Shown here: positions 2,645 through 24,961 of the stretch, in pieces
How positions within the stretch are numbered: position 1 is the first letter of the stretch
Layout of the letters: each line of letters begins with the position of its first letter
Source of the DNA: a virus
Taxonomy: Duplodnaviria; Caudoviricetes
Virus record (IMG/VR): IMGVR_UViG_3300025141_000549
Location: 1-28,712 of that record
Reading direction: 5' to 3' (one strand)
Length of the DNA stretch: 28,712 bases
Translations under genes and position numbers: made by a program
Notes under the pieces: model-generated
Databases searched by the model: none
Told to the model about the DNA's origin: nothing
The model's input: only the letters and a program-made list of their open reading frames with translations

Positions 2645-2656
2645 AGGACCAGCCCC

Positions 2657-3427
2657 ATGGCAAATCTACCAGTAAAAGACCAAGCAGCAGCCACTAAATA
2701 CCTGAAGACGTCTGGCGCAGGCACTGACGGTGACCCACATATCCCAGAACACCTGGAAACGAACAGCGCAGCCATCCTGACGGCCCTGCAGATCATTGAC
2801 AACATAGTCAGTGGCAGTGAAGCCCAGGTGGATGTGGTGGCTTCCCTGCCTGCTGGAACCAATGCCATAGGTAAGCTGGCAGCCAATAGTGGTGTAGATA
2901 TTGGTGACGTGGACGTCCTGTCCAGCGCACTGCCATCTGGTGCAGCCACTGAAGCCACCCTGGCTGCCCTGGAAGAAACCGTGGAACCCGTCAAGGCATC
3001 CACAGACATCACGGTGACAGCAGACCTGCAGGTGGCTGGGGAAGTGCTTTTTGACACCACAGCAGTGGCCCTGGCCAAGGCGGTCAGTGAAGTGGGTGAA
3101 CTTATCAGCATCAACCTGGTCTTCCTGACGGACCAGGCATTTGACTTTGACCTGTATGTCCTGAACACGTCAACAACTATCGGGGCAGCAGGTGGCGCCC
3201 CAACAATCACTGCAGCCAACCTTCAGCCATTGATAGTGGCTGACTGGAAGGTCAAGTCTGGAGCATTCACAAATCCAGTCACTGGCCTTTACAGCGTGAC
3301 CCTGCCATTGATGGGGCTGCCCTATGTGGCCAAGACGGCTGAACAGAACATCCACCTGGCTGCTGTTACCAGAAGCGCCACCACGCCCACAGACACCACT
3401 GTGAAGTCTACGGTTTTTGGTAAATAA
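2657..3427 (+). CDS. Putative virion structural/tail protein
   Basis: AAAGGA RBS. Ala/Thr/Val-rich, with SLPAGTNAIGKLAANSGVDIGDVDV, a motif recurrent in phage structural proteins. Confidence 0.55.
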   Translation: MANLPVKDQAAATKYLKTSGAGTDGDPHIPEHLETNSAAILTALQIIDNIVSGSEAQVDVVASLPAGTNAIGKLAANSGVDIGDVDVLSSALPSGAATEATLAALEETVEPVKASTDITVTADLQVAGEVLFDTTAVALAKAVSEVGELISINLVFLTDQAFDFDLYVLNTSTTIGAAGGAPTITAANLQPLIVADWKVKSGAFTNPVTGLYSVTLPLMGLPYVAKTAEQNIHLAAVTRSATTPTDTTVKSTVFGK

Positions 3428-3438
3428 GGGGAAGCACC

Positions 3439-4506
3439 ATGGCAATGCAGAAGCAGGGAAGTGGACTGGTCAGGGGCTATGACCTGGACGGTATTATTGA
3501 CACCCTGGGTGAAGACACAGACATCAGCAGTTTCACGGCGGGGGACCTTCTGAAGGCCAATGACGGCACCACCCTGGGGAAGCTGGCTATAGGGGCAGAA
3601 GGTGAAGTCCTGACGGTCAGTGGTGGCGTCCCTGCTTGGGTGGCTGCTGCTGGTGGGGGTAATTTTATTGCCAGTGATGGGACCACGGTGATAGGCGCAG
3701 GTGACGCAGTGGCCCTTGACCATGCAGATGGACCAGGTACCACCGTTTTGACATTAAATGCTGATGGTGATGGTGGGACTACTGATTCTGATGCCATCTT
3801 CAGGCTGAGAAATGTCAACGACTCTTACCCAGGGGACCTGTTCGCAATAGGGGCTGAGCACGTAGGCAGTTCAAGTTATAGTTACGGCTTCACAGAATAC
3901 AGAGGGATCCACCAGGGCACTGGGGCAACCCTGGCCGCGATCCGGATCGGGCTAACCTCTGCAGCATTCAATCGACTTGAAATAACAGGCGCTAGTACCA
4001 TAGACTTCAACGCCACTGTAATGGCATCTAATTATCAACTTGGCTCTGGGACAACTTTTACTGGGTACAATGAAGGACAAGGTGGTAGCAGTACTGGCAC
4101 GGTTAGGATTTATTCTGGCTTTGGCGGCGGTGATGTAGCACTTGGCACAGCATCAGGCCCTGATGATATATGGAGCCTGGAGAACCACAAATTTAGCAGT
4201 ACACTGGAGCAGGACGTCAATGACGCTGGTGTGGCTGCCAGATTCAATCAGCAGGGTGCTGGTGGCATTTTAGAAGTAGAAGACAATGGGACCACTGCAT
4301 TTCTGGTGGATGCCAACGGCAGCACCAGGGCAGGGAAGGCATCCCTGGCCACCACGGCCACTGATGGGTTTTTATATATCCCATCCTGTGCAGGTGCGCC
4401 CACAGGGGTCCCATCAACAGTGACGGGAATGCTTCCCCTGGTAGTGGATGACACAAGCAACCAGTTGTATTTCTATGATGGCGCCAGTTGGGTGGCTGTC
4501 AATTAG
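3439..4506 (+). CDS. Tail fibre / receptor-binding-like protein
   Basis: GGGGA RBS. Fibre motifs GDLLKANDGTTLGKLAIGAEGEVLTVSGGVPAW and C-terminal DDTSNQLYFYDGASW; Gly/Thr/Ala-rich. Confidence 0.65.
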   Translation: MAMQKQGSGLVRGYDLDGIIDTLGEDTDISSFTAGDLLKANDGTTLGKLAIGAEGEVLTVSGGVPAWVAAAGGGNFIASDGTTVIGAGDAVALDHADGPGTTVLTLNADGDGGTTDSDAIFRLRNVNDSYPGDLFAIGAEHVGSSSYSYGFTEYRGIHQGTGATLAAIRIGLTSAAFNRLEITGASTIDFNATVMASNYQLGSGTTFTGYNEGQGGSSTGTVRIYSGFGGGDVALGTASGPDDIWSLENHKFSSTLEQDVNDAGVAARFNQQGAGGILEVEDNGTTAFLVDANGSTRAGKASLATTATDGFLYIPSCAGAPTGVPSTVTGMLPLVVDDTSNQLYFYDGASWVAVN

Positions 4507-7926: not shown

Positions 7927-8059
7927 AGGCACCCCTACAGATTCTGGCCAGGTCATCTGACCAATTCTGGCCACGGGCCTGCTGGAGGACCCAGACCACC
8001 ACTTCAATGTCTGGGTGTCCTTCGGCACGGGCCTGTTGTAATATGGATTCAAGGTTCAT
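7886..8059 (-). CDS. Hypothetical protein, 57 aa (not in ORF track)
   Basis: ATG overlaps the RecT stop (TGATG). Reads MNLESILQQARAEGHPDIEVVVWVLQQARGQNWSDDLARICRGAYEVRQKDRPIHQG, with genome-typical codons. Confidence 0.55.
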   Translation of the reverse strand: MNLESILQQARAEGHPDIEVVVWVLQQARGQNWSDDLARICRGAYEVRQKDRPIHQG

Positions 8060-9153
8060 CAGTCTGGCATCCCATCAGTGTCAACGGTTCCGTCTGTGGG
8101 CAGGTCCAATTCTTTAGGCGGTTCATCTTCCCACATGGCCTGGCTGAATTCTTCCTGCTCTTTGGCAGTCCATTCAGCGTCTTCAGCCATCTGCTTCAGG
8201 TCAGCTTCCATGGCCAGTGTTTCAGGGTCAGGCCCTGCCATGGCCTGGTTGAATTCTTCCTGTTCTGCCTGTGCCTTCTCGACATCAGCAGCCATCTGGT
8301 TCAGATCGGCTTCAAAGTCACGCAGGTCAGAGACAACACCTTTGGCCTGCTCTGTGTTTTCAATATCATCCACGCTGACCATGTCGTGAGCCTTCAGGAC
8401 GTCCATGAAGCCATCTTCTGACCTGCCACGCAGCCCCTGCAGCCATGGCACAAACTTCTGGCCTTCTGCAGTCTTTATCCATGGCACAGGTTCAGGTGGT
8501 GGTGCCTGTTCGTCTGTGGGCTTCTCTGTGGACGCCACAGGGACATCTGGTGTCTGGGTGTTGACCACTTCAGCATGGACTTCCAGGACTTCCCCTGTTT
8601 CTTCGTCCACGCTGGCCCCCATTTCTTCTGGTGTGTAGATGCCAGCCAGAACATCGGCGAAGGTGGGACGGAAGGCGCCAGAGATACTACGCCACATCAG
8701 CATAGTGGCAGGCTGGCGTTTGTACTGGCTGCCCGTCTTATTAAGCAGGCCCATCCTGTCAGCGTCTTCAATCGTGAAGCAGAAGCTGAAGGGTTCCCTG
8801 TTCCTGCGTTTAACGGTACAGCATGCCTGCTGATCTGAGCGGTCCACCTTCCAGTTTTCTAATTGCCCTGTGCGTTCTGCCAGCGCCACCATAAGCTGTG
8901 GGCTAATAGTGGGTTTCCCCTGGATGACATTGATGGACCCAAAGGCTTCCATAGCCCCCAGTCCCAATTCCTGACCCTTCAGGATGATGGCCACGGCTGC
9001 TTCCTTCGTCCTGACGGACGGTGGGATCATCCCAGACTTGACCAGGGTGTCCCCAAGTGTCATCAACTGGTCCATCTGGCCCACTATGTCCAGGATGGAC
9101 ATCTGTGGCCTAATGGTGGGTGATTGCTGTCCCTCATGAATCTGCATGGTCAT
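8059..9153 (-). CDS. recT: RecT-like single-strand annealing protein
   Basis: LVKSGMIP...GQELGL..MEAFGSINVIQGKP...FTIEDADRMGL...QPATMLMWRSISGAFRPTFADVLAGIYTPEE; long acidic tail. ATG 9153 follows AGGGGG. Confidence 0.8.
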   Translation of the reverse strand: MTMQIHEGQQSPTIRPQMSILDIVGQMDQLMTLGDTLVKSGMIPPSVRTKEAAVAIILKGQELGLGAMEAFGSINVIQGKPTISPQLMVALAERTGQLENWKVDRSDQQACCTVKRRNREPFSFCFTIEDADRMGLLNKTGSQYKRQPATMLMWRSISGAFRPTFADVLAGIYTPEEMGASVDEETGEVLEVHAEVVNTQTPDVPVASTEKPTDEQAPPPEPVPWIKTAEGQKFVPWLQGLRGRSEDGFMDVLKAHDMVSVDDIENTEQAKGVVSDLRDFEADLNQMAADVEKAQAEQEEFNQAMAGPDPETLAMEADLKQMAEDAEWTAKEQEEFSQAMWEDEPPKELDLPTDGTVDTDGMPD

Positions 9154-9186
9154 ACTGTGCCCCCTGTGGTGTGATGGTGTCCTGTG

Positions 9187-9214
9187 AATATACAATTACT
9201 GTAGTGAACGTCAA
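9187..9214 (-). promoter_or_regulatory. Sigma70-like promoter for recT
   Basis: TTGACG-N16-TATATT on the minus strand. Same hexamers, spacing and internal CTACAG as the promoter at 10966-10993. Confidence 0.7.
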
Positions 9215-11736: not shown

Positions 11737-12651
11737 GTGATGATTCATGCATTCCACCATGGACTGGCAGTGGCCACTGGTGTGCCAGCAGCAGTCATCC
11801 ACCAGGAAATCCTGCGTTGGTGTCAGTACAATCAGAAGGACGAAAACGAAGACCTGCGCCATAACGGTATATATTGGATGTACACCACCCACAGCAGGCT
11901 TCACAAGCACCTTCCATTCTACAGTATCAGCACAATTAAACGCTCCATGGCCACCCTTCTGGATGCAGGATTGATCCTGACACGGCCAAGGGGGCTGGAT
12001 AATCCCAAGTCATTGTTATATCACGCCTTACCCCATGACACCAGCTTGGGTCAAAATGACACCACGAAAACTGAACCACCTGGTATCAAAACGACACCAC
12101 TGAAGGGTCAAAATGAACCAGATGGTGGTGTCAAAATGAACTCACTGAACATAGGTAACAACATAGGTAAACAAGAAAAGCTGGCGGGTGCGCCTGCGCA
12201 CGAAGAACAGGCTGAAGACGGTCGTACGCATTCCATGAAGCCCATGGGTGTGGTCATCAGGTTCTATGACAGGCTGGGGAAGGAACCAGAAGCCAGGTGG
12301 CTGGGGAAGGATGAACAGCGGGCTGCGTCACTGATGCTGGCAGGATTCAATCCAGACCAGATTGTGGGGGTTATAGACAAACGCAGGGACATTCAGGGAA
12401 TGCACTACCTATCCCTGGACCTGATGCAGGAACTGTACCCACACCTTGAACTGGATCAGGGAGCACTGGACGCCACCAGGAAACAGTTGGCTTCCTATGA
12501 CGAAGTGGAACCTGCAGAACCAGAAATGGCCATGGCTGCGATTCAGGACATAAAGGCGCAGTTGACACCTAATGACCAGCCTGAACCCGAAGAACTGACT
12601 GACAGGGAAGCGTCTGAACGATACGGAAACGGGAAGGACCTACCATGGTAA
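11737..12651 (+). CDS. Phage replication initiator (N-terminal winged helix)
   Basis: HAF...AVATGVPAAVI...GIYWMYTT...LPFYSISTIKRSMATLLDAGLI is a typical phage initiator N-terminus; internal iterons; GAAGGGGG RBS. Confidence 0.75.
   Translation: MMIHAFHHGLAVATGVPAAVIHQEILRWCQYNQKDENEDLRHNGIYWMYTTHSRLHKHLPFYSISTIKRSMATLLDAGLILTRPRGLDNPKSLLYHALPHDTSLGQNDTTKTEPPGIKTTPLKGQNEPDGGVKMNSLNIGNNIGKQEKLAGAPAHEEQAEDGRTHSMKPMGVVIRFYDRLGKEPEARWLGKDEQRAASLMLAGFNPDQIVGVIDKRRDIQGMHYLSLDLMQELYPHLELDQGALDATRKQLASYDEVEPAEPEMAMAAIQDIKAQLTPNDQPEPEELTDREASERYGNGKDLPW
12051..12170 (+). repeat. Iteron cluster, probable replication origin
   Basis: TCAAAA(T/C)GA-type repeats at 12051, 12086, 12108 and 12131, then AACATAGGTAA twice (12148, 12160), all inside the initiator gene as in lambda O. 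Confidence 0.75.
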
Positions 12652-13814
12652 CGTATGCGTCTTTTTTCTCTGGGATAGGCGGTTTTGACCTTGGCTTTGA
12701 TAGGGCTGGAATGGAATGTAGCCTGCAGGTGGAAATGGATGACAGGGCACGGGGTATCTTGACCAGACACTGGCCAGATGTCCCAAAACTACAGGATGTG
12801 CGTGATGTCACAACCACAGATTTTGGAGCAGCAACAGTTGCAGTTGGGGGATTCCCCTGTCAAGACGTTTCACTTTCTGGAAAGCGCAAAGGCCTGGCTG
12901 GAGAACGGTCGGGAATGTGGTTTGAATTCCACCGAATTCTTCAACAAAATACACCAGACTGGGTGGTCATTGAGAACGTCCCTGGCTTATTATCAAGTAA
13001 CGGGGGCAGGGACCTTGCCACCATCCTTCACGGGCTGGGGAAATGCGGGTATCTATGCGCCTGGCGAGTCCTTGACTCTCAATTCTTCGGAATCCCACAA
13101 CGGCGGCGCAGGGTCTTCATTGTTGGGCATTTTGGAACAGGAAGTGCCGCCGAAGTACTTTTTGAGTCAGAAAGCATGTCGAGGGATTCTGACAAGGATA
13201 GAAAGAAGGGAAAGCAGGCCCCCACGCTTACTTCTTCAGGCGCTGGAATGTCAAGGTGCGGTGGCGGGGCAGGAGCAGAAGCAGGATTCTACGTGACAGT
13301 GGCACATGGCATCAATGAGCAAATAGACACGGGAGTCTGTCCCACAGTGAAGCCAGGGACACAATCAGTGGTGGCTGGGTCCATGGTCACATATTCCACG
13401 CCTGCCATCGGTATAGTGAAGGAAGATGATGTGGCAATGACCATGCAGGCAGCATCAGGTGGACGGGGTGAATCACAGAACCCCGCTTATGTGGTCCAGG
13501 CGCAGCCAATAACAGATGGCAGGGCCATTCCTGATGGTCACACCCTTGGCGTCAGAAGATTGACACCTGTGGAATGCTGCAGGCTTCAAGGGTTTCCAGA
13601 TGACTGGAATGACGGCCAGCCAGACGGTCCCAGATATAAACAACTGGGGAATGCGGTGTCTGTGCCTGTGGCGCAGTGGATAGGCAGGCGCCTGGTGGCA
13701 GCACAGGTGAAGCTGGACCTGGAAGCCTTCCCTGCCCCAAGTGGAACCATTGGTGGCATGATGGATGATGCCACGATTGACATAGCCACCAATAGGGAAG
13801 GCTTGACGGGGTGA
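12645..13814 (+). CDS. DNA (cytosine-5)-methyltransferase
   Basis: Motifs I FSGIGG, IV GGFPCQDVS, VI ENVPG, VIII QRRRRVF, IX RRLTPVECCRLQGFPD and X LGNAV. Confidence 0.95.
   Translation: MVTYASFFSGIGGFDLGFDRAGMECSLQVEMDDRARGILTRHWPDVPKLQDVRDVTTTDFGAATVAVGGFPCQDVSLSGKRKGLAGERSGMWFEFHRILQQNTPDWVVIENVPGLLSSNGGRDLATILHGLGKCGYLCAWRVLDSQFFGIPQRRRRVFIVGHFGTGSAAEVLFESESMSRDSDKDRKKGKQAPTLTSSGAGMSRCGGGAGAEAGFYVTVAHGINEQIDTGVCPTVKPGTQSVVAGSMVTYSTPAIGIVKEDDVAMTMQAASGGRGESQNPAYVVQAQPITDGRAIPDGHTLGVRRLTPVECCRLQGFPDDWNDGQPDGPRYKQLGNAVSVPVAQWIGRRLVAAQVKLDLEAFPAPSGTIGGMMDDATIDIATNREGLTG
12778..13296 (+). CDS. Nested alternative-frame ORF, M.EcoHK31I beta-subunit-like
   Basis: 172-codon +1-frame ORF wholly inside the MTase, ending SSLLGILEQEVPPKYFLSQKACRGILTRIERR...LLQAL. 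Start uncertain. Confidence 0.6.
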   Translation: MSQNYRMCVMSQPQILEQQQLQLGDSPVKTFHFLESAKAWLENGRECGLNSTEFFNKIHQTGWSLRTSLAYYQVTGAGTLPPSFTGWGNAGIYAPGESLTLNSSESHNGGAGSSLLGILEQEVPPKYFLSQKACRGILTRIERRESRPPRLLLQALECQGAVAGQEQKQDST

Positions 13815-15394: not shown

Positions 15395-15964
15395 ATGAAA
15401 ACAAATAAGCCCAAGAAGAAGGGCCTACGGTGTGGATCGAAGACCAGAGCGGGTGGGAAGTGCCAGCGGTTTGCCCTGCGAGACAAGAAACGCTGCAGGC
15501 TTCACGGTGGTCTGGCCAAGACGGGACCTGATGCCAATGCCTTCAAGCATGGCAGATATAGCAGGTTCAAGGGTGACTTCTTCCAGAAGGTTCAGGAAGC
15601 CAGGGAAGACCCTGACCTACTGAGTCTAAAGGATGAAATCCACCTGATTGACGCCCAGATGCAGGCCAGGCTGAATGACTTTAACCCACTAAATGCCACC
15701 CACGTTGACGCCCTGTCCCTGCTGATAGGCCAGCGTCTGGCTTTGGTTCAGTCAGAGCGGAAGCGCCAGGTAGAACTGGCAACACAGATGACCCATGAAC
15801 AGGCAGCCACCATGGTGGCCATAGTAGTGGCTGCTGTGAAGGCCAACATAGATGACCCAAACACTATCCAGTCCATCATTACAGACCTGCGCAGACAGTT
15901 ATCTGGCCCAGTTGATAGACCAACTGGAAATGGCGGGAACCCTGCCAAAGCCATCCCTGCGTGA
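15395..15964 (+). CDS. terS: Terminase small subunit (HGGxSTG-type)
   Basis: CGSKTRAGGKC...RCRLHGG...NAFKHGRYS; directly upstream of TerL. Confidence 0.8.
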   Translation: MKTNKPKKKGLRCGSKTRAGGKCQRFALRDKKRCRLHGGLAKTGPDANAFKHGRYSRFKGDFFQKVQEAREDPDLLSLKDEIHLIDAQMQARLNDFNPLNATHVDALSLLIGQRLALVQSERKRQVELATQMTHEQAATMVAIVVAAVKANIDDPNTIQSIITDLRRQLSGPVDRPTGNGGNPAKAIPA

Positions 15965-17336
15965 GTACATAGAAGAAGCCTGGCCTGTCCTGGAACCTGG
16001 CACCACGTTTGTGCCTGGATTCCACATTGACGCCATTTGTGAACACCTGGAAGCGGTGTCTGTTGGCCAAATTCGTCAGCTTGTCATCAATATGCCACCC
16101 AGGCACATGAAATCCCTATTAGTGTCTGTGATGTGGCCCACATGGGACTGGACCAGGACCCCGTCTTCCAGATGGATATATGCTTCATATTCAGCAGACC
16201 TGTCCACCAGGGACAGCCTAAAGTGCAGGCGCCTGATACAGTCCAACTGGTACCAGAACAACTGGGGCAGCATGTTCAGGATGACGGGTGACCAGAACGC
16301 CAAGAAACGATTTGAAAACACTGCCACGGGCCACAGGCTGGCCACTTCTGTGGGTGGTATCGGTACAGGCGAAGGTGGGGACAGGGTGGTGGTGGATGAC
16401 CCACATAATGTTCTGGAAACGGAAAGCCCTGTGAAGCGCCAAGCGGTCCTGGAATGGTGGGATGGCCAGATGTCCACCAGGCTGAATGACGCATCTACTG
16501 GGGCCTTCGTTATAGTCATGCAGCGCATTCATGAACGGGACTTGGCTGGACACGTCCTGGACAGGGAAGAATATGAACACCTGGTGCTGCCTGCAGAATA
16601 TGAACCCACCACCATGGTGACCAGCCTGGGATGGGAAGACCCCAGGACCGAATCTGGGCAGCTATTATGGCCAGAAAAGATGCCCCAGGAAGCCCTAAAT
16701 GCTCTGAAGGCCAAACTGGGCAGCCACAGGGCGGCAGGACAGCTTCAGCAGCGCCCTGTCCCCAAAGAAGGCGGGGACTTCAAGGCTGAATGGTTTGGGA
16801 TTGTAGGGGCTGCGCCTGTGGCAGCGTCCAAAGTCAGACACTGGGACCTGGCAGCCACAGAACAGAAGGCCAATGAAGACCCTGACTGGACGGTGGGCTG
16901 CCTGATGTCCAGGGCGCCAAATGGCATTCACTACATAGAAGACGTCAGGCGGTTCAGGGGGTCACCCCATGAAGTGGAACAGACCATAAAACAAACGGCT
17001 GAACTGGATGGGAAGGGTGTGATGATAAGCCTGCCCCAGGACCCAGGCCAGGCGGGGAAAGCACAAGCTGCGTATTACGTGAAGGCCCTGGCAGGCTATA
17101 CGGTCAGAACAGCGGTTGAAACGGGCAGTAAGGAAGTCAGGGCTGAACCCGTGGCTGCCCAGGCAGAAGCAGGAAACGTGAAACTGGTCAAGGGGCACTG
17201 GAATAAGGATTTTATAGACGAAGTCACATTCTTCCCATTTGGCGCCCATGATGACCTGGTGGACGGCATGTCTGGTGCCTTTACCAGGCTACTACAAAAG
17301 ACTAAAATACGAAGGCCTGAAATAAGGGGGCTATAG
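15852..17336 (+). CDS. terL: Terminase large subunit
   Basis: Walker A-like MPPRHMKS, Walker B VVVDDPH, VMQRIHERDLAG, nuclease WDLA...HDDLVDG. Start could instead be ATG 15930. Confidence 0.95.
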   Translation: MTQTLSSPSLQTCADSYLAQLIDQLEMAGTLPKPSLREYIEEAWPVLEPGTTFVPGFHIDAICEHLEAVSVGQIRQLVINMPPRHMKSLLVSVMWPTWDWTRTPSSRWIYASYSADLSTRDSLKCRRLIQSNWYQNNWGSMFRMTGDQNAKKRFENTATGHRLATSVGGIGTGEGGDRVVVDDPHNVLETESPVKRQAVLEWWDGQMSTRLNDASTGAFVIVMQRIHERDLAGHVLDREEYEHLVLPAEYEPTTMVTSLGWEDPRTESGQLLWPEKMPQEALNALKAKLGSHRAAGQLQQRPVPKEGGDFKAEWFGIVGAAPVAASKVRHWDLAATEQKANEDPDWTVGCLMSRAPNGIHYIEDVRRFRGSPHEVEQTIKQTAELDGKGVMISLPQDPGQAGKAQAAYYVKALAGYTVRTAVETGSKEVRAEPVAAQAEAGNVKLVKGHWNKDFIDEVTFFPFGAHDDLVDGMSGAFTRLLQKTKIRRPEIRGL

Positions 17337-17569: not shown

Positions 17570-17598
17570 TTGACCTGGTGGGGGCAGCGTGATATATT
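17570..17598 (+). promoter_or_regulatory. Sigma70-like promoter upstream of the portal gene
   Basis: TTGACC-N17-TATATT with extended -10 (TGa). Confidence 0.7.
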
Positions 17599-17629
17599 TG
17601 AACCACACACACATCAAAGGACCAGAACC

Positions 17630-19039
17630 ATGCCAGTCACCACCATTCATAATGATTATGAAAAACAGAAGACCAAGTGGAAGCGCTGCAGACATGCAGT
17701 GGAAGGGTCTGACGCCATTAAAGACGAAGCAGCCACCTATTTGCCTGTGCCATCTGGAATGACAGCGTCTAACCCTAAATATATGTCATATAAGACCAGG
17801 TCTAAATGGTTCCCTGCGACATCCAGGACACTGGAAGGACTGGAAGGTGAAGTCTTCAGGAATCCACCACGTATAGATGATGCAGATGCACTGGAAGACG
17901 CACTGAAGGACGTGACCCTGACGGGCCAGACATTCAACCAATACGCCAGGCAGGCCCTACAACACAGGTTGGTGGCTGGGAGATTCGGGACACTGGTGGA
18001 ATGGTCAGATAAACTGCAGCGCCCGTATCTGATAGGGTACACAGCGGAAAACATCATTAATTGGCGCAGCATCACCACGGGTGAAGGCCAGAAGCTGACC
18101 ATGGTGGTCCTTCAGGAACTGGTGGGCCAGGAACCGGAAGATGAATTCGACACCCAGCAGATTGTCCAGCTTCGGGCACTGACTATTGACCAGGCCAGTG
18201 GTGTCTATGTGTCCAGGATATACCAGACGAAGGAATTGATGGTGGACGGCACAAAATCAGTGGAACCCACCCTGGTGTCAGAATCGGTCCCCACAATGCG
18301 GGGTGAAGCCCTGACCAAAATACCCTTTATTTTTCACGGTGTTAGTGAGAATAGCAGCGCCATAGAGAAACCACCCATGCTGGACCTGGTGGACTTGAAC
18401 ATTGCAGACTTCAGGAACAGTGCCGACCTGGAACACGGGCGCCACTTTTGCGGCCTGCCGTTCTATTACATATTCGGTGCCACTGAACTGGAAGATGATG
18501 AAGCTGAACTGGAAATTGGAAGCAGTGCTGCATTCACGTCATCCAATGCAGACTGCAAGGCAGGCATTATTGAATTCAGTGGGCAGGGCCTGGGAGCATT
18601 GGAGAAGGCCAGGGAAGAAAACAGAACAGAAATGGCCCTGATGGGTGCCAGGTTGATGGAAGAAGCCAAGAAGACTGGGGAAACGGCTGAAGCGCTGGCC
18701 AGGCGCCAGAGCGGGAAGTTGTCTGTGCTTCAGGCCATGGTGGAAGTCCAGAATGAAGCCCATGAAGACGAATTGAACACCATGCTGATGTGGCTGGGGC
18801 AGACTGACGCAGACGCCACAGTGCATCTTAATAAAGATTTCACGGTATCGAAGCTGGAACCACAGGACCTTCAGGCCCTGGTGGCTTCATGGCAGGCAGG
18901 CGCCATCAGCAGCAGGACCCTGTTTGAAAACCTGCAGAATGGCGAGATAATCAGCCAAGACAGGGGCTACGAAGAAGAACAGGCCCTGATAGACGAAGAA
19001 GCACCAGTGATGGAACCCAGCCTGGGACTGGCCGGATAA
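17630..19039 (+). CDS. Portal protein (DUF4055-type)
   Basis: YLPVP...Y..YKTRS.WFPATSRTLEGL.G.VF, YTAENIINW, KPPMLDLVDLNIADFRNSADLEHGRHFCGLP. ATG 17630 after AAAGGA; the track's TTG start is the -35 box. Confidence 0.92.
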   Translation: MPVTTIHNDYEKQKTKWKRCRHAVEGSDAIKDEAATYLPVPSGMTASNPKYMSYKTRSKWFPATSRTLEGLEGEVFRNPPRIDDADALEDALKDVTLTGQTFNQYARQALQHRLVAGRFGTLVEWSDKLQRPYLIGYTAENIINWRSITTGEGQKLTMVVLQELVGQEPEDEFDTQQIVQLRALTIDQASGVYVSRIYQTKELMVDGTKSVEPTLVSESVPTMRGEALTKIPFIFHGVSENSSAIEKPPMLDLVDLNIADFRNSADLEHGRHFCGLPFYYIFGATELEDDEAELEIGSSAAFTSSNADCKAGIIEFSGQGLGALEKAREENRTEMALMGARLMEEAKKTGETAEALARRQSGKLSVLQAMVEVQNEAHEDELNTMLMWLGQTDADATVHLNKDFTVSKLEPQDLQALVASWQAGAISSRTLFENLQNGEIISQDRGYEEEQALIDEEAPVMEPSLGLAG

Positions 19040-19042
19040 ACC

Positions 19043-21577
19043 ATGCCAATAGCAGATGACTTGGCTGATGAATTCACAGCCAGGGACCTTCAACTGAACC
19101 GCCTGGCAGAATCTGAGCGCAGGAAGATATTTTCAGCCATCACCAAGCTGGAAGGCGAATTGATAGAAGCCCTGCGGAAGGTGGACCCCACAAAGGTGGC
19201 CAGGGAAACCTTCAGAAGGCGAAGGATGAAGGCGCTGCTGGACCTGGTCAGCCCCATCATCAGGAATGGATATGGGGCCATTGGACGTGAGCAGAAGAAG
19301 GTCCTGCGTCAGGTGGCCAGACTGGAAGCTGACCAGGCCACCAAAATCATCAATAATGCTATAGGTTTTGACGCCATGAACATCACGCCAGAGCCTGAAA
19401 CGCTACGGGCACTGGCTGATGACACACTGGTGGAAGGTGCAGTGGTGCAGGCATGGTGGAAGAAGAAGGGTGATGACACCAGAGAAATGTTTGCCAATGA
19501 AATGCGTGCTGGCTTATTCGCACAGGAAGACTTCAACAGTCTGATGCAGCGGGTAAGGGGTACCAGGGCCAATAGGTTCCAGGACGGCATCACAGGCATT
19601 CAGAGACGAAGCGCAGAACGCATTGTAAGAACGAGCGTGAACAGTGTGTCCAATAATGCCAGGGAACAGACCTTCAGTGAGAATGAAGACATCATGAAGG
19701 GAGTGCAGGCCCTGGCAACCCTGGACACCAGAACCAGTCCCATCTGTATGGCACGGGCGGGGTCAGCCTGGAACTTGAACACCAGGAAGGCCCTGCCTGA
19801 GTCACCCAGAAAAGAAGATTACCCTGGGCCACCACCATGGCACTGGCGCTGCAGGACGGTCATGAATCCTGTATTGAAATCCTATGAAGATTTGCTTGGG
19901 AGCCAGGGAAAGCAATTTGACAAGGCACTGGAAGACCTGGGACCAGGCACCAGGTCCAGTATGGATGGCCAAATCGCAGGGGACACCACATTCCATGACT
20001 GGTTTGAACGCCAGGGAGAAGGGCGCCAGAAGACCCTGCTGGGAGCAGGGCGCCTGAAGCTGTACCAGGGCGGGAAGCTGAAACTGAAGGACCTGGTTGA
20101 CCAGCGTGGACATCCACTGACCATAGACCAACTGATTGACCTGGATGGTGGGGGCGGTGGGACAGGAAGCAGCGGTGGGGGTGGCGGTATTGACTTTGAA
20201 GCGGCCAGGGCTGCTGTCTTTGAGAGACACCCGAAATTGGCAGAACTTGGGGACAGCTTATACATGGAAACTGACATTGAAGCCAGTGGGGTGGCGTCTA
20301 TACTGGAAGACATGGAACAGATAGATGCTAATATATTGAAGGCGCTAAAAGACAATAATATCCAGGTTTATATCGGCGAAGGCCCAGTGACTGGGATTGA
20401 TGACATGGGCCACTTGAAGGGAGTCCAGCCCAGGGGGTGGCCACCTGGGTCAACATGGGACCAAGTGGGGGGATTGTTTAATCCACAGAATAACAGGGTA
20501 GTGGTGGGAACAGGAATGGTGGATGGGTCAAAAAGTACCATCCTTCATGAAATGGGGCATGCAGTTGACAGGTTATTGGACGACCTAAGTAATCGCAGGG
20601 TGGGATGGCTGGAAAGTGACCATATTAGACTATTCCCCAAACTTAACCAGTATTTACAGCAGGGCGGCCCTGGTGGGCGGGTGGGGATGGCTGAAATGTT
20701 TGCAGAAACATTTGCAGAATATCACCTGAAGTCTAAAAAGTGGTTCATAGATAAATATGACGCCGATTATGCGACCCATCTGAAGCACTACCTTGAAGGA
20801 ATTGGTGCTCCTGTTGCCAGGCGCCAGGCGCCCTGGGTACCTGCAACCACCATAAAAGAAGTGCATGATAGAATGGGTAGAATTTTTACCAGGGGTGGCA
20901 GGTTGGGTGTGGAAGGTGACCTGGACACTATGAATGAAATCCTACATGGACTGGAAGACACCCTGGGGAAATATGGTGTGGCTATTAATGAATTGCAATA
21001 CCAGAAGCGGGGGCAGAAGTCTATTGGTAGGGCAGGTGGACAGATGGGTGGGAAAGCAGGCACCATGTGGCTTCAAAAGACATTTGTAAAGCAAGGGAAG
21101 AAGAAACGGATAGAGCGGATGAAGGGTGAGCATGAAAAATGGGAGAGAATCCACAAAGACAACATTAGGCGGTCTGAGCAGGGTATTAAGGGAATGCGTG
21201 ATGGGATAAAGGCTGGGAATATAAGGAATAGTGCTGCTGACCTGGCGAAGATGGAAGCAAGGCACAGAAAGCTGGAAGGGTTGCGGTATTGGATAGCAGC
21301 AGAAGAAGCCACGGGTGACCCATTATACGGAATAACAAAACATGAAGCCTACCACCTGCTTGACTATAGCCAAGGGTGGACAGTCAGCACAGAACTGATG
21401 AAACGGCTAAGGGCTGAAGTGCCAGAACATATTCTGGCGCAGTTTCCAGGGGAATATGGATCAAGTAGTGCCAGGGAAATGTTCACAGAACTGGGAACAG
21501 CCATTGACCTGGGGCTTGAAGTCCCAGAACAAATGAAAGCAGTTTTTCAGGATGTTGTGGGGGTATTTGAAAAATGA
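19043..21577 (+). CDS. MuF-family minor head protein with C-terminal tandem zinc-metallopeptidase domains
   Basis: MuF motifs ATLDTRTSPICMAR and PPPWHWRCRT; poly-Gly linker; HEMGH...EMFAETF; then HEAYH...EYGSSSAREMFTE. Confidence 0.88.
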   Translation: MPIADDLADEFTARDLQLNRLAESERRKIFSAITKLEGELIEALRKVDPTKVARETFRRRRMKALLDLVSPIIRNGYGAIGREQKKVLRQVARLEADQATKIINNAIGFDAMNITPEPETLRALADDTLVEGAVVQAWWKKKGDDTREMFANEMRAGLFAQEDFNSLMQRVRGTRANRFQDGITGIQRRSAERIVRTSVNSVSNNAREQTFSENEDIMKGVQALATLDTRTSPICMARAGSAWNLNTRKALPESPRKEDYPGPPPWHWRCRTVMNPVLKSYEDLLGSQGKQFDKALEDLGPGTRSSMDGQIAGDTTFHDWFERQGEGRQKTLLGAGRLKLYQGGKLKLKDLVDQRGHPLTIDQLIDLDGGGGGTGSSGGGGGIDFEAARAAVFERHPKLAELGDSLYMETDIEASGVASILEDMEQIDANILKALKDNNIQVYIGEGPVTGIDDMGHLKGVQPRGWPPGSTWDQVGGLFNPQNNRVVVGTGMVDGSKSTILHEMGHAVDRLLDDLSNRRVGWLESDHIRLFPKLNQYLQQGGPGGRVGMAEMFAETFAEYHLKSKKWFIDKYDADYATHLKHYLEGIGAPVARRQAPWVPATTIKEVHDRMGRIFTRGGRLGVEGDLDTMNEILHGLEDTLGKYGVAINELQYQKRGQKSIGRAGGQMGGKAGTMWLQKTFVKQGKKKRIERMKGEHEKWERIHKDNIRRSEQGIKGMRDGIKAGNIRNSAADLAKMEARHRKLEGLRYWIAAEEATGDPLYGITKHEAYHLLDYSQGWTVSTELMKRLRAEVPEHILAQFPGEYGSSSAREMFTELGTAIDLGLEVPEQMKAVFQDVVGVFEK

Positions 21578-21762
21578 GTGCTACAACACAATGCGGGGTC
21601 TGTGTCTATTATGAAGGATTAATGACCTGTAAGGCTTTCCCAGACGGCATCCCACACCAGATCATGGCTGGGGAATTTGACCACAATAAACCATGGCCAG
21701 ACAAGGGGAACAGGGCGGACAATGGTGTGACGTTCAAAGATGCAGAGAAGGCCACCAGGTGA
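21574..21762 (+). CDS. Small Cys-rich protein, candidate MuF immunity
   Basis: ATGA-coupled to MuF; CxxC...CKAFPDGIP..I..GEFDH..P....DNGVTF. Confidence 0.7.
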   Translation: MSATTQCGVCVYYEGLMTCKAFPDGIPHQIMAGEFDHNKPWPDKGNRADNGVTFKDAEKATR

Positions 21763-21768
21763 TTATCA

Positions 21769-21796
21769 TTGACTGGTTATATAAAAATTGTATTAT
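21769..21796 (+). promoter_or_regulatory. Internal promoter in an AT-rich patch
   Basis: TTGACT-N16-TATTAT with AATTG before the -10, as in the 9187-9214 promoter. Confidence 0.55.
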
Positions 21797-21822
21797 ATAG
21801 CAGTGTATTTAAGGGGGACAGA

Positions 21823-21984
21823 GTGAAAGCGTACAGGCTAAATAATGGTAGTCTATTGGTTCCGAAAGTTGCAACAGATGGAGAAGTGCTAGGTGATGGG
21901 ATGGTTGAAGTAGCGCCTGGGAGTCAGGAGTTTGAAGACTGGAAGGATGAAGCGGTAGATATTCCTGACGAATTCAGGCAATGA
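21823..21984 (+). CDS. Small acidic protein (53 aa), second candidate immunity
   Basis: GTG 21823 after AAGGGGGA; the track's TTG start is the -35 box. ATGA-coupled to the first GT. Confidence 0.65.
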   Translation: MKAYRLNNGSLLVPKVATDGEVLGDGMVEVAPGSQEFEDWKDEAVDIPDEFRQ

Positions 21985-22598
21985 ACAACACCCTGCCCAT
22001 ATCGGTCATTGTTCCCCTGGTGCGCAACACCCTATTCACCACGGTGGGTCTTCCTGCCCTGCAGGCCAATAATGTCTGTGAAGTCATTTGGGACACAGGC
22101 CCTGGGAATGCCAATGTGAGAAGGAACAGGGCAGCAGCGCAGGCCACGCAGCCCTTCCTGTTCTTCCATGATGATGACGTCATCCTGCTTCCCTATGCCC
22201 TGCGCAGGCTTCACAGCCTGCTTGACAGGTCCCCACCAGAAACCACCATGGCATATTGTGACTTTATGGTGGTCAATCACCCCACTATCACCAATCAAGT
22301 CAGGAGACCTGGCCCATGGGACGCTGAACGCCTGAAGAATGAAAACTATATAAGCATGATGTCCCTGGTCAAGACTGCTGTGTTCAGGGCTGTGGGTGGC
22401 ATGGATGAAGACCTGGAACGATTCCAGGACTGGGACCTGTGGCTGAGACTCGCAGAACTGGGGCCTGGTGTGTATGTTCAATCGAAACGCCAGGAACCAC
22501 TGTTCAGCGCCCTGTATGTAGGCGGGGGCATCACAATCAATGACTGGCAGCAGACGAAGGCAGCCAGGCAGTGCATCCTGGACAAACACCAGGAATGA
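21981..22598 (+). CDS. Glycosyltransferase family 2 (GT-A)
   Basis: ISVIVP, RRNRAA, FLFFHDDD (DxD), VGGMDE...QDWDLWLRL. Confidence 0.88.
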   Translation: MNNTLPISVIVPLVRNTLFTTVGLPALQANNVCEVIWDTGPGNANVRRNRAAAQATQPFLFFHDDDVILLPYALRRLHSLLDRSPPETTMAYCDFMVVNHPTITNQVRRPGPWDAERLKNENYISMMSLVKTAVFRAVGGMDEDLERFQDWDLWLRLAELGPGVYVQSKRQEPLFSALYVGGGITINDWQQTKAARQCILDKHQE

Positions 22599-22706
22599 CA
22601 CACCACAGTATTGCTTGCAGGCTGTTCTGGGCACAATAGAAGACCCCAGCCAGGTCTTATAATAGTATGGATTTGTGCTTGAGTATCCAAAAACAGGGAA
22701 TGACCA

Positions 22707-23525
22707 ATGGAGAAACCTGAAGTGGACATCATTATGCTGTCCCACAATCAGACTGACCTGACGGTCAAGTGCATTGAGACACTGGGCATGGCCACAGAAG
22801 ATACCAGGTTCAGGCTGATATGGATTGACAATGGGAGTGAACACGCCCACAGGTTGGCGGTCCTGGACAAACTTAATGAACTGCAAATAAACTTCATTTG
22901 CCACATGAATGATGACAACTGGGGCTTCCCCAAGGCGGTCAACCTGGGGCTGGCGCTATCCACGGCGCCATATATGGTCCTATTGAATGATGATGTGGAA
23001 TTCCGCCAGGTCTATCTGAACCCAGTGAAGCCACTGCCAACCATTAAGGGATATGAAGCCATGCCCACTGCGCCACCTGTCCCAAGGCAGAACCCTGCAG
23101 TGTTCGCCAGGATGGTTGAACATATCGAGCGCACAGGGGCACACCTGGCAGCCACTTTGTCCACGTCAGGATGGCAGAATCGCACCAGCCTGGCAGTGGA
23201 AAGTCTGGCCAGGGATGCAGAAGACGGCGCAGTGGTCCTGCCCAGGGACCACCACCCAGCGTTCTTCTGCACCATGCTGACCAGACACGCCATTCAGCAT
23301 GTGGGGTATTTGTCAGAAGCCATGGGTGAAGGCTTCGGTGAAGATGATGACTACAATGAACGGATGGAAGACCTGGCCCTGAAGCGCCTGTTGTGTCTGG
23401 ACTGTCACGTCATTCACCACCACAGGTCCACCTGGAAGGCATTGAAGACCACCACAGAAATTGCAGCCAGCCAGGCTGAGTCCATGAAGGTCCTGCAGAA
23501 TAAGTATGGAAGACAGGTGTGGTGA
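22707..23525 (+). CDS. Glycosyltransferase family 2 (GT-A)
   Basis: VDIIMLSHNQ, WIDNGS, NWGFPKAVNLGL, VLLNDD, VGYLSE...GEDDDY, HHHRST. Confidence 0.92.
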   Translation: MEKPEVDIIMLSHNQTDLTVKCIETLGMATEDTRFRLIWIDNGSEHAHRLAVLDKLNELQINFICHMNDDNWGFPKAVNLGLALSTAPYMVLLNDDVEFRQVYLNPVKPLPTIKGYEAMPTAPPVPRQNPAVFARMVEHIERTGAHLAATLSTSGWQNRTSLAVESLARDAEDGAVVLPRDHHPAFFCTMLTRHAIQHVGYLSEAMGEGFGEDDDYNERMEDLALKRLLCLDCHVIHHHRSTWKALKTTTEIAASQAESMKVLQNKYGRQVW

Positions 23526-24130
23526 TGGTACTGTGTATGCTGTCCAGGGGCATAGGGCCACTGGCCCCAACCATTGAAGCCATGCAGCAGGCATTCAGGC
23601 ACGGTTGGGGGTTTGAAGCCATCCTGGGTAAAAAACTGGTTGATGCCAAGAACCATGCGGTGCATATTGCAATAGATCGAAACCAAGACCTACTATTGAT
23701 GGAAGATGACATCCACGTCCCTGGAAGGACCTGGGTGTCCTTCAGGGCGACCCTGGGGGTCAGTGATGCGATACTGGTGGCAGAAACCAAGACCAGGACG
23801 GGCAGGTCTAATATCTGGACAGGCCCAGAGTCTGGCAGGTTCCTGTTTTCTGGCAGCCACTTTGTCAGGATACCAGTTGACGTCCTGAAGCGCTTGAAGC
23901 AGCCAATATTCAGGTCCTGGAATTTTGCCAGGACAATAGACGGGGAAGACATGATTGACAGGGGGCCAGCGAAGCATGGCAACCATTCAGACGTCTTCTT
24001 TTGGTTCCACGCCATGAAACTGGAGCCAAAACCACAGGTGGCCATAGTTGGGGAATGTGACCACTTGAAGCACCCCTGGAACACAGGGGAAACCAGCCAC
24101 GCTGACCCTTATGTGGCAGAATGTTATTAA
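23525..24130 (+). CDS. Divergent GT-A-fold glycosyltransferase-like protein
   Basis: DAKNHAV, LLLMEDDI (DxD-like), HSDVFFW, CDHL; TGATG coupling to the previous GT. Confidence 0.6.
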   Translation: MVLCMLSRGIGPLAPTIEAMQQAFRHGWGFEAILGKKLVDAKNHAVHIAIDRNQDLLLMEDDIHVPGRTWVSFRATLGVSDAILVAETKTRTGRSNIWTGPESGRFLFSGSHFVRIPVDVLKRLKQPIFRSWNFARTIDGEDMIDRGPAKHGNHSDVFFWFHAMKLEPKPQVAIVGECDHLKHPWNTGETSHADPYVAECY

Positions 24131-24202: not shown

Positions 24203-24223
24203 AAAGACGGGGGGATATTTAGA

Positions 24224-24961
24224 ATGGCACTACCACTTGAAATTTCAGCGCTTGAAGATGTTGACGAATCCCTGCGAGAACACTATGAAGAAGCAGGGGA
24301 CGGTTTCCGGTTATCAGGCATACCAGACACGTCCACCCTGGAAGGAACCCTGAAGAAGGAAAGGGATGCCAGGAAGGACCTGGAAAAGTCACTGAAGCAA
24401 TTTGACGGGGTTGACCTGGAAGACTACCAGAAACTGTCAGCAGAAGCCAAGGCACGGGAGAACAAGAAGCTGCTGGATGCTGGGAAAGTGGATGAACTAC
24501 TGGAACAGCAGAAGACCCAGTTGACTTCAACATGGGATAAAGAACGGGACACGCTGACAGTAGAGCGGGACACGCTGTCAGTCCAGGTCAAAGACCTTCT
24601 GGTGAACGATAAGCTGAAGGCTACGGCCCTGGGAATGTCTGCCCATGAAAGTGCCCTGGACGACATCATTAAACGGGCTGACGGCTGGACGATTCAGGAA
24701 GGCCAACCAGTCCTTCTGGACCAGGAGAATGCCCCAGTATTAAAGAACGGGGTCAGGATAACCATGGACCAGTGGGTGGAAGACTTGCAGGTGGTAGCGC
24801 CACATCTATTCAAACAATCAAATGGTGGTGGCGCCCAGCCTGGGTCTGGAAACGGACAAGGCGGTGGAACTGGTAGGAAGCGTTCTGATATGTCCATTGC
24901 ACAGAAAACAGTGTACATAGAAGAACACGGCCAGGAAGCATATGGGAAGCTGCCCCAGTAA
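24224..24961 (+). CDS. Capsid scaffolding protein
   Basis: ATG 24224 after GGGGGGA. Coiled-coil, APHLFKQSNGGGA, Gly-rich linker, C-terminal RSDMSIAQK..YIEEHGQEAYGKLP; precedes the MCP. Confidence 0.85.
   Translation: MALPLEISALEDVDESLREHYEEAGDGFRLSGIPDTSTLEGTLKKERDARKDLEKSLKQFDGVDLEDYQKLSAEAKARENKKLLDAGKVDELLEQQKTQLTSTWDKERDTLTVERDTLSVQVKDLLVNDKLKATALGMSAHESALDDIIKRADGWTIQEGQPVLLDQENAPVLKNGVRITMDQWVEDLQVVAPHLFKQSNGGGAQPGSGNGQGGGTGRKRSDMSIAQKTVYIEEHGQEAYGKLPQ

Follow-up and report, generated by a model that had tools for sequence, protein, structure and literature searches.

Why should a phage head protein end in two zinc peptidase domains, and what is the role of the two small genes that follow it? 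The question is raised by a virus record of the Caudoviricetes (IMGVR_UViG_3300025141_000549, positions 1 to 28,712; completeness 36%), the whole 28,712-nt stretch of which is referred to here as the window. Its MuF open reading frame (ORF; 19043-21577, + strand) encodes a protein of 844 amino acids (aa), in which a head-morphogenesis region and a Gly/Ser linker are followed by two domains, designated D1 and D2. Genes for a 62-aa and a 53-aa protein lie downstream. Our favoured reading, to which we assign a probability of about 0.58, is that the locus constitutes a virion-carried polymorphic toxin cassette: two MuF-borne zinc proteases predicted to be delivered into the next host, with one predicted guard each, the 53-aa protein for D1 and the 62-aa protein for D2. 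This reading proceeds from four direct observations, i.e. the zinc-peptidase residue sets of both domains, the pairing of protein families, their nested order and the exchange of the block between related phages.

The 844-aa protein contains two HExxH motifs, compared with about 0.03 expected from its composition. All motifs listed in a first-pass annotation of the sequence were recovered: the linker at 20147-20188, HEMGH at aa 502 (20546) and HEAYH at aa 767 (21341-21355). Residues 409-565 of D1 match the Pfam ATLF family (PF07737) with 72 bits (cut-off 27.4), and the domain matches the PPEP-1 sequence with E 3e-13, so the PPEP/ATLF relationship proposed earlier for D1 is well founded. The catalytic set comprises H502, E503 and H506, with Y537 as the oxyanion Tyr and E551 as the third ligand, the latter within EMFAETFAEYHL (aa 551-562). 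Residues P463, R464, W466 and W472 align with the S-loop and pocket of PPEP-1 (roles as described in PMC12828418). To the D1 sequence we aligned 73 relatives picked by the loop motif and HExxH, whose invariance among the relatives is by construction, since both were used in the selection. Y537 and E551, neither of which was used for selection, are invariant in all 74 rows. Within this alignment the D1 domain of the window falls in a phage clade of nine rows.

An exhaustive search with D2 found 57 other matches. A MuF Pfam match is present in 18 of these, exactly one HExxH in 56, and two HExxH motifs in none. The catalytic set consists of H767, E768, H771, Y805, E812 and E816, the last three lying within EYGSSSAREMFTE (aa 804-816). 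All but Y805 are invariant in 50/50 rows (49 homologues and the query), and Y805 is conserved in at least 90% of them. A model built from the alignment (pLDDT 94.8), which replaced a discarded single-sequence model (pLDDT 54), shows an extended helical hairpin as an insert ahead of the catalytic helix. Its top three fold matches among 48,161 chains were lethal factor (Z 10.0, rmsd 3.7, 159 aligned residues), PPEP-2 (Z 8.3) and PPEP-3 (Z 8.0). On the basis of fold and catalytic residue set, D2 is confidently modelled as an ATLF/M34-fold zinc peptidase, and its earlier description as a genuine second peptidase domain stands.

No BLAST similarity was found between D1 and D2, and a profile-profile comparison of the D1 family with D2 gave 87% over 61 columns only. 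The two domains were therefore probably acquired separately as representatives of one fold; an origin by tandem duplication was rejected for lack of BLAST similarity. The tandem arrangement had been pointed out earlier as unusual. It is indeed uncommon but not unique, as a second HExxH occurs in 3/27 distinct viral D1 proteins (L129, L130 and L157) and multi-copy phage peptidases have been published (PMC5512222). In a further locus, L026, the HExxH motif is duplicated.

The 53-aa protein belongs to a family, named here GD-hairpin, that accompanies D1-type peptidases. A profile of small genes following such peptidases, built without the window and its copies L263 and L334, detected the 53-aa ORF with E 1.7e-6 among 27,684 ORFs, the best match outside the family having E 0.12. 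At 22 of 42 residues the protein is identical to the product of a gene overlapping the stop codon of another MuF-D1. In the training loci (128 clusters at 90% identity, of which 92 could be assessed, the others being without flank or copies of the window), family members were found beside the D1-type protein in 80/92 clusters, including 12 fused forms, a count that is partly circular. A held-out set of 80 genome loci fetched later contained 46 clusters that were new at <90% identity; the 53-aa family was present in 42 of them and the 62-aa family in none. No match to the 53-aa family occurred in the 120 loci collected via the 62-aa motif. In the opposite direction, scans with the partner motif yielded 10 true family matches in 57 loci, and a HExxH gene is directly upstream in all 10 (8 distinct, 5 new); three of the five new upstream genes match Pfam ATLF. 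All six of the closest relatives of the 53-aa protein serve as partners to members of the nine-row clade containing the D1 domain of the window. A Mantel correlation between D1 and partner distances (rho 0.70) reflects shared kinship and was not counted as co-evolution.

The D1 type is not confined to MuF proteins. It was found fused to PAAR in 7/28 metagenome proteins scanned, to VgrG in 3/20 and to an extracellular contractile injection system (eCIS) core in 1/20, accompanied in each setting by the same 53-aa-family partner. Cognate immunity typically shows itself in a gene that follows one enzyme from carrier to carrier, and by this signature we infer that the 53-aa gene is the immunity gene for D1; its product probably inhibits the domain. 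Two family matches per locus occur in 11 loci, and nine ORFs contain a lipobox-like stretch. A Pro-Pro tail ends 33/44 bacterial copies of the family and 0/8 of those in the window's clade. In partner genes of L220-L298, e.g. L273 (3400-3618), this Val-Pro-Pro-Trp/Phe-like tail resembles a PPEP substrate, and the Pro-Pro-tailed bacterial partners co-occur with the diverting-loop His in their peptidases. Two loci, L128 (3619-8631) and L150 (1389-5666), encode the D1-type domain and the partner domain in one large polypeptide, which in L128 also carries prohead serine protease and capsid domains. In Zooshikella (L467, 2425-6534; also L471 and L478) a D1-type domain is part of a protein of great length that also has ADP-ribosyltransferase and membrane-localisation domains, and the locus stops before any partner is visible.

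The 62-aa protein (motif CxxC..CxAFPxGIP..H) matches its own family profile with E 6e-15. The motif is present in about 1600 viral stretches, and three Cys and one His are conserved in the family. The gene upstream of a family member ends in HExxH in 48/78 loci, compared with 0/197 control ORFs, and has a MuF Pfam match in 51/77. Scores of >=100 bits against the D2 profile were obtained for 10/79 motif loci (7 distinct). All 10 have a 62-aa-family gene over the stop codon and none has a 53-aa-family gene; of all 28 distinct C-terminal MuF-type zincins, 9 are accompanied by the 62-aa family. We give the 62-aa protein an even chance of being an inhibitor of D2. A hybrid gene was noticed after the D1-type tips of L021 (3872-4111), L126, L135, L138, L139, L154 and L158; in it, a cysteine-rich 62-aa-type domain is preceded by a short N-terminus that resembles the GD-hairpin family but stays below profile significance.

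Neither small protein could be assigned to a described family. No match to the 53-aa family was found in Pfam, NCBIfam, PADLOC or PHROGs, comparison with PDB gave repeat-driven noise only, and an Atlas search yielded only a lead (0.81). Likewise, the 62-aa family has no match in Pfam, NCBIfam or PADLOC; Pfam scans of the two partner families gave 0/74 and 0/55 matches. A word-based homologue search with the 62-aa protein returned only itself, tblastn against phages gave five weak matches, an Atlas search returned unnamed viral clusters (0.95), and one weak PHROG match is to a group of unknown function (phrog_33375).

The elements of the locus are nested, in the order D1, D2, partner of D2 (62 aa), partner of D1 (53 aa). 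This order is repeated in L129, where D1 and a second zincin are followed by a 62-aa-family gene, a 91-aa gene and a 53-aa-family gene. The same L129 protein (1-2589) also contains a stretch without Pfam match that we take to be RelA/SpoT-like, giving three domains, and the 62-aa-family, unassigned 91-aa and 53-aa-family genes make up three partners. L130 shares MuF and D1 with the window (42% over 599 columns) and then has a different tail, which suggests that D2 and its partner are later additions than D1.

Exchange of the region was seen at strain level. Contigs of near-identical phages from runs X3 and X4 (two studies) depart from the window at 20130 with identical alternative letters, the frame staying open for the 30 letters given; an X4 contig rejoins the window at 21986 after 236 unlike letters. 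These borders bracket exactly both domains and both small genes, and from the departure and the rejoining it follows that the four parts are exchanged as one block. That the cassette lacks coverage in runs X3, X4, X5, X7 and X9 was not counted as evidence. The GC content at third codon positions (GC3) is 0.49 in D1, 0.47 in D2 and 0.56 and 0.37 in the 62-aa and 53-aa genes, compared with 0.59-0.66 in four flanking or core regions, and the MuF region (0.62) resembles core genes. Since each small-gene family travels with one protease type, and in reverse order, the block is likely to be a swappable weapon with one predicted inhibitor per protease. Coordinates of the features are collected in Table 1.

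Table 1. Features of the MuF locus in the window, with strand and supporting evidence.
Feature	Coordinates	Strand	Evidence or remark
Portal gene (context)	17570..19039	+	phrog_145, E 1e-113; directly upstream of the MuF gene
MuF head-morphogenesis region, aa 1-368 (carrier)	19043..20146	+	phrog_241, aa 4-368, E 1e-94
Gly/Ser linker, aa 369-382	20147..20188	+	Sequence
Putative exchangeable cassette (linker, D1, D2, 62-aa gene, 53-aa gene)	20131..21985	.	Contig borders and GC3
D1, predicted PPEP-like ATLF zinc peptidase, aa ~394-590	20222..20812	+	PF07737, PPEP-1, 74-row alignment
D2, predicted ATLF/M34-fold zinc peptidase with long helical-hairpin insert, aa ~596-844	20828..21577	+	Homologues, invariant columns, model, fold matches
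62-aa CxxC..CxAFPxGIP..H protein, candidate guard paired with D2	21574..21762	+	Overlaps the MuF stop codon
Sigma-70-like site, TTGACT-16-TATTAT, before the 53-aa gene	21769..21796	+	Weak; 10/12 matches
53-aa GD-hairpin protein, candidate cognate inhibitor of D1	21823..21984	+	Family profile, homologue, co-occurrence

According to the favoured reading, D1 and D2 would be packaged with the DNA as part of MuF and delivered into the next host, and the 53-aa and 62-aa proteins would keep the proteases inactive in the producing cell. D1 may prefer proline-rich sites, as PPEPs do. The enzymes would act on a cytoplasmic host protein at few copies per virion and may tune early infection or lysogeny rather than kill outright. 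As to its history, an ancestral unit of MuF-D1 and the 53-aa gene would have taken in a unit of D2 and the 62-aa gene at the end of D1.

Several findings weigh against this reading. The His of the PPEP diverting loop, which lines the P1' pocket and is present in 39/44 bacterial relatives, is missing from D1, which makes its Pro-Pro specificity uncertain. In the window's own row, D1 and partner distances are uncorrelated (rho 0.10). For D2, the best fold score (Z 10) is middling, no Pfam match was obtained, and a Foldseek search of the PDB and viral libraries gave nothing at E <= 0.001; a sequence search of the PDB also returned nothing significant. The zincin fold expected for D2 in the first-pass annotation was recovered by the lethal factor, PPEP-2 and PPEP-3 matches but not by Foldseek. 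The cassette borders are defined by single contigs with a depth of about 3, and no contig joins both of them. Published precedents also point elsewhere: peptidases of phage polyvalent proteins have often been proposed to act in self-processing (PMC5512222), and the characterised PPEP substrates are encoded beside the protease (PMC12828418), so adjacency can mean a substrate.

The distribution of the 62-aa family is a further difficulty. Non-zincin tips precede it in 25 of 73 distinct upstream genes, comprising nine HxHP tips and 16 others that include ADP-ribosyltransferases and a zeta-like kinase; a role of the 62-aa protein as a dedicated active-site inhibitor is hard to reconcile with this distribution. 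The family also follows 6/92 D1-type clusters, and L157 has a second zincin with a 53-aa-family gene only. The 62-aa family is therefore not specific to D2. The earlier proposal of two partner genes for two domains holds at the level of family pairing in nested order, but not as a one-to-one assignment of the 62-aa family. The HxHP tips (L015, L019, L020, L024, L042, L045, L061, L062 and L080), which precede the 62-aa family and have no Pfam match of their own, are possibly an unlisted MuF payload class. We take the HxHP domain to be JAB/MPN-like.

The breadth of the 62-aa family raises another explanation, in which the 53-aa protein inhibits D1 and the 62-aa protein is no inhibitor of D2 but a general helper of MuF tips, i.e. 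a zinc-binding chaperone or a loading adaptor on MuF or the linker. Such a helper would account for the family trailing zincin, HxHP, ADP-ribosyltransferase and zeta-like tips alike and for the frequent MuF match upstream (51/77), and the conserved Cys (three) and His (one) residues point to a metal site of a structural kind. It would, however, hardly be swapped out together with the tip block, nor be missing from 19/28 distinct C-terminal MuF-type zincins and yet present in all 10 D2-type loci; the hybrid genes after D1-type tips, which join a GD-hairpin-like N-terminus to a 62-aa-type domain, do not fit it either. We regard this explanation as unlikely. Self-processing is less likely again: the peptidases would cut MuF or other head proteins at maturation or after injection, and the small proteins would only delay the cleavage. 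The autoproteolysis proposed for polyvalent-protein peptidases (PMC5512222) and the L128 polypeptide, in which prohead protease and capsid domains accompany the D1-type domain and its partner, are consistent with this. Against it, sister phages replace the entire block, a tip is absent from most MuF proteins (PMC5576092), D1 of the same type is found at PAAR and VgrG tips, and nothing is left to release beyond D2.

The nature of the 53-aa protein may also be viewed differently. As a substrate or activating subunit of D1, it would act as a switch, like the adhesins encoded beside PPEP-1 and -2. The Pro-Pro tail of 33/44 bacterial family members and the retention of HExxH in fused D1-partner forms would agree with such a role, but such a tail is missing from the window's protein and from its clade (0/8), and duplicated and lipoprotein-like partner copies after injected tips fit immunity; we judge a switch to be rather improbable. 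Finally, D1, D2 or both might be protein-binding modules devoid of activity, comparable to CD1597, a PPEP homologue that is inactive on Pro-Pro bonds (PMC12828418). D1 does deviate from PPEPs at two pocket positions, but the catalytic Glu, the zinc ligands and the oxyanion Tyr are retained across divergent homologues, and loss of activity appears very improbable. We therefore retain the toxin cassette with two predicted guards as the favoured reading.

MuF is a head component, present in one to three copies, that binds the portal and DNA, and delivery together with the DNA has been proposed for its tips (PMC5576092, PMC12226406). The locus has the features of MuF polymorphic toxins (PMC5576092): an N-terminal MuF region after the portal in a portal/terminase neighbourhood, a C-terminal ATLF domain, downstream ORFs of <150 aa and a variable tip on a conserved carrier. 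The first-pass placement in this class is thereby borne out. Metallopeptidases were reported in 20% of 191 MuF toxins (Jamet et al. 2017, PMC5576092), and Table S5 of that study contains at least 31 MuF-ATLF rows of 406-642 aa with one named domain. Unlike these, the protein described here has two peptidase types and two partner genes in nested order; the text of PMC5576092, as far as it was available, gives no partner family for MuF peptidase tips. The Apk2/IapK/Aph1 system (PMC12226406) similarly has two immunity genes behind its MuF toxin, and the product of one of them acts by binding the toxin. In that system a single (p)ppApp synthetase domain is guarded by both genes, whereas in the window each is apparently matched to a separate domain.

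The endopeptidases PPEP-1, -2 and -3 (PMC12828418; PDB 6r54, 6fpc and 9g0j) share with D1 the Pro-Arg-Gly-Trp of the S-loop, the Trp of the pocket, HExxH, the third-ligand Glu and the oxyanion Tyr. They are secreted or wall-anchored extracellular enzymes of Firmicutes, with no inhibitor mentioned in the available part of PMC12828418, whereas D1 is embedded within a head protein, and the spacing between its Tyr and Glu is longer. By its residues D1 thus resembles PPEPs but lacks two features of the group, the diverting-loop His and secretion. In the accessible text of the PPEP phylogeny PMC8610288, the words phage, PAAR, immunity, inhibitor and MuF do not occur.

Polyvalent proteins (Iyer et al. 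2017, PMC5512222) are likewise delivered by phages, include MuF as a hub domain and contain more than one zincin-like peptidase in about 8% of those having one. MuF-D1-D2 combines two effector domains in one late-module phage polypeptide, as these proteins do, but domain-matched partner genes are not described in the portion of PMC5512222 available. The Tox-ALFMPTase toxins with Imm-SuFu family 2 (Zhang et al. 2012, PMC3482391) are also lethal-factor-like polymorphic toxins with an immunity gene. They are associated with PVC and type II secretion system (T2SS) delivery and SuFu immunity, whereas the partners found here are without a Pfam family and the carriers include MuF, PAAR and VgrG. Further related literature comprises PMC9503650 and bioRxiv 10.1101/2024.03.15.585006. 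In the published literature, neither of the partner families was found described, nor was a MuF cassette with two nested peptidases; the supplements of PMC5512222 and PMC3482391 may name such families, and the search covered no subscription papers. MuF-ATLF toxins and multi-peptidase phage proteins are already known; what is new is the domain-partner pairing.

MuF peptidase tips are common, but in the available text of the literature consulted they have no assigned partner or target. The two widespread small-protein families, neither represented by a Pfam model, provide a prediction that contrasts matched with crossed combinations of protease and partner. PPEP-like enzymes, known as secreted adhesion switches, would be extended to injected effectors with a likely natural inhibitor, and a payload and its guards are seen to be exchanged as one block between strains. 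If the inhibitors were confirmed, the proteases would become expressible and their host targets could be found, so that the part MuF toxins play in infection would be directly testable. A bolder joint reading, which we consider speculative and doubtful, would make the PPEP-like proline-directed protease and its small inhibitor an undescribed toxin-immunity pair common to contractile injection systems, type VI spikes and the heads of phages. Inhibitors of bacterial origin would plug the active site by a Pro-Pro decoy tail, and the 62-aa zinc finger would be a broad guard silencing several unrelated MuF payloads. Phages would stack payload-plus-guard units in one head protein, and the two proteases, once injected, would cleave defence proteins of the host within the first minutes after infection begins.

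The genes upstream are arranged in the order terminase (15852-17336), portal (17570-19039) and MuF, and the whole locus is covered by a single contig of run X1, which may be the source of the record. The two read sets that match the window best carry the label marine metagenome and are its possible source. Below the respective cut-offs, the MuF region also matches Pfam PF04233 (Phage_Mu_F; 27.4 bits, E 6e-6, just under the cut-off of 29.6) and TIGR01641 (E 4e-8). No integrase was detected among the ORFs scanned against PHROGs and Pfam, in a record that is 36% complete and without a dedicated search, and no RNA read sets are listed among those matching the window.

The start of the 53-aa ORF was placed at GTG 21823; the alternative, TTG 21769, would give 71 aa. 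The shorter form is favoured because a purine-rich, ribosome-site-like run lies just upstream, because of the lengths of the homologues, and because a one-base insertion behind 21810 in one run X2 contig shifts the 71-aa reading only. The sigma-70-like site preceding this gene is one of 15 in the record, compared with 9.5 +/- 3.1 in shuffled sequences, and lies in its most AT-rich 60 bases (GC 0.28).

Downstream of the cassette, two glycosyltransferase-like genes and a third, unassigned gene are followed by the scaffold and capsid genes. The former two, of glycosyltransferase family 2 type (one above the Pfam cut-off), occupy with the unassigned gene the interval 21981-24130 between cassette and scaffold, within the head module, and are possibly involved in capsid glycosylation. 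At window positions 19800 and 24218-24253, single contigs from runs X9 and X7 show further loose ends, which are short and may represent other organisms or other variable points. In the early region, a C5 cytosine methyltransferase gene and a weak RecT-like gene were identified (12645-13814 and 8059-9195), and positions 473-4506 contain three long ORFs (723, 256 and 355 aa) without a Pfam or PHROG match.

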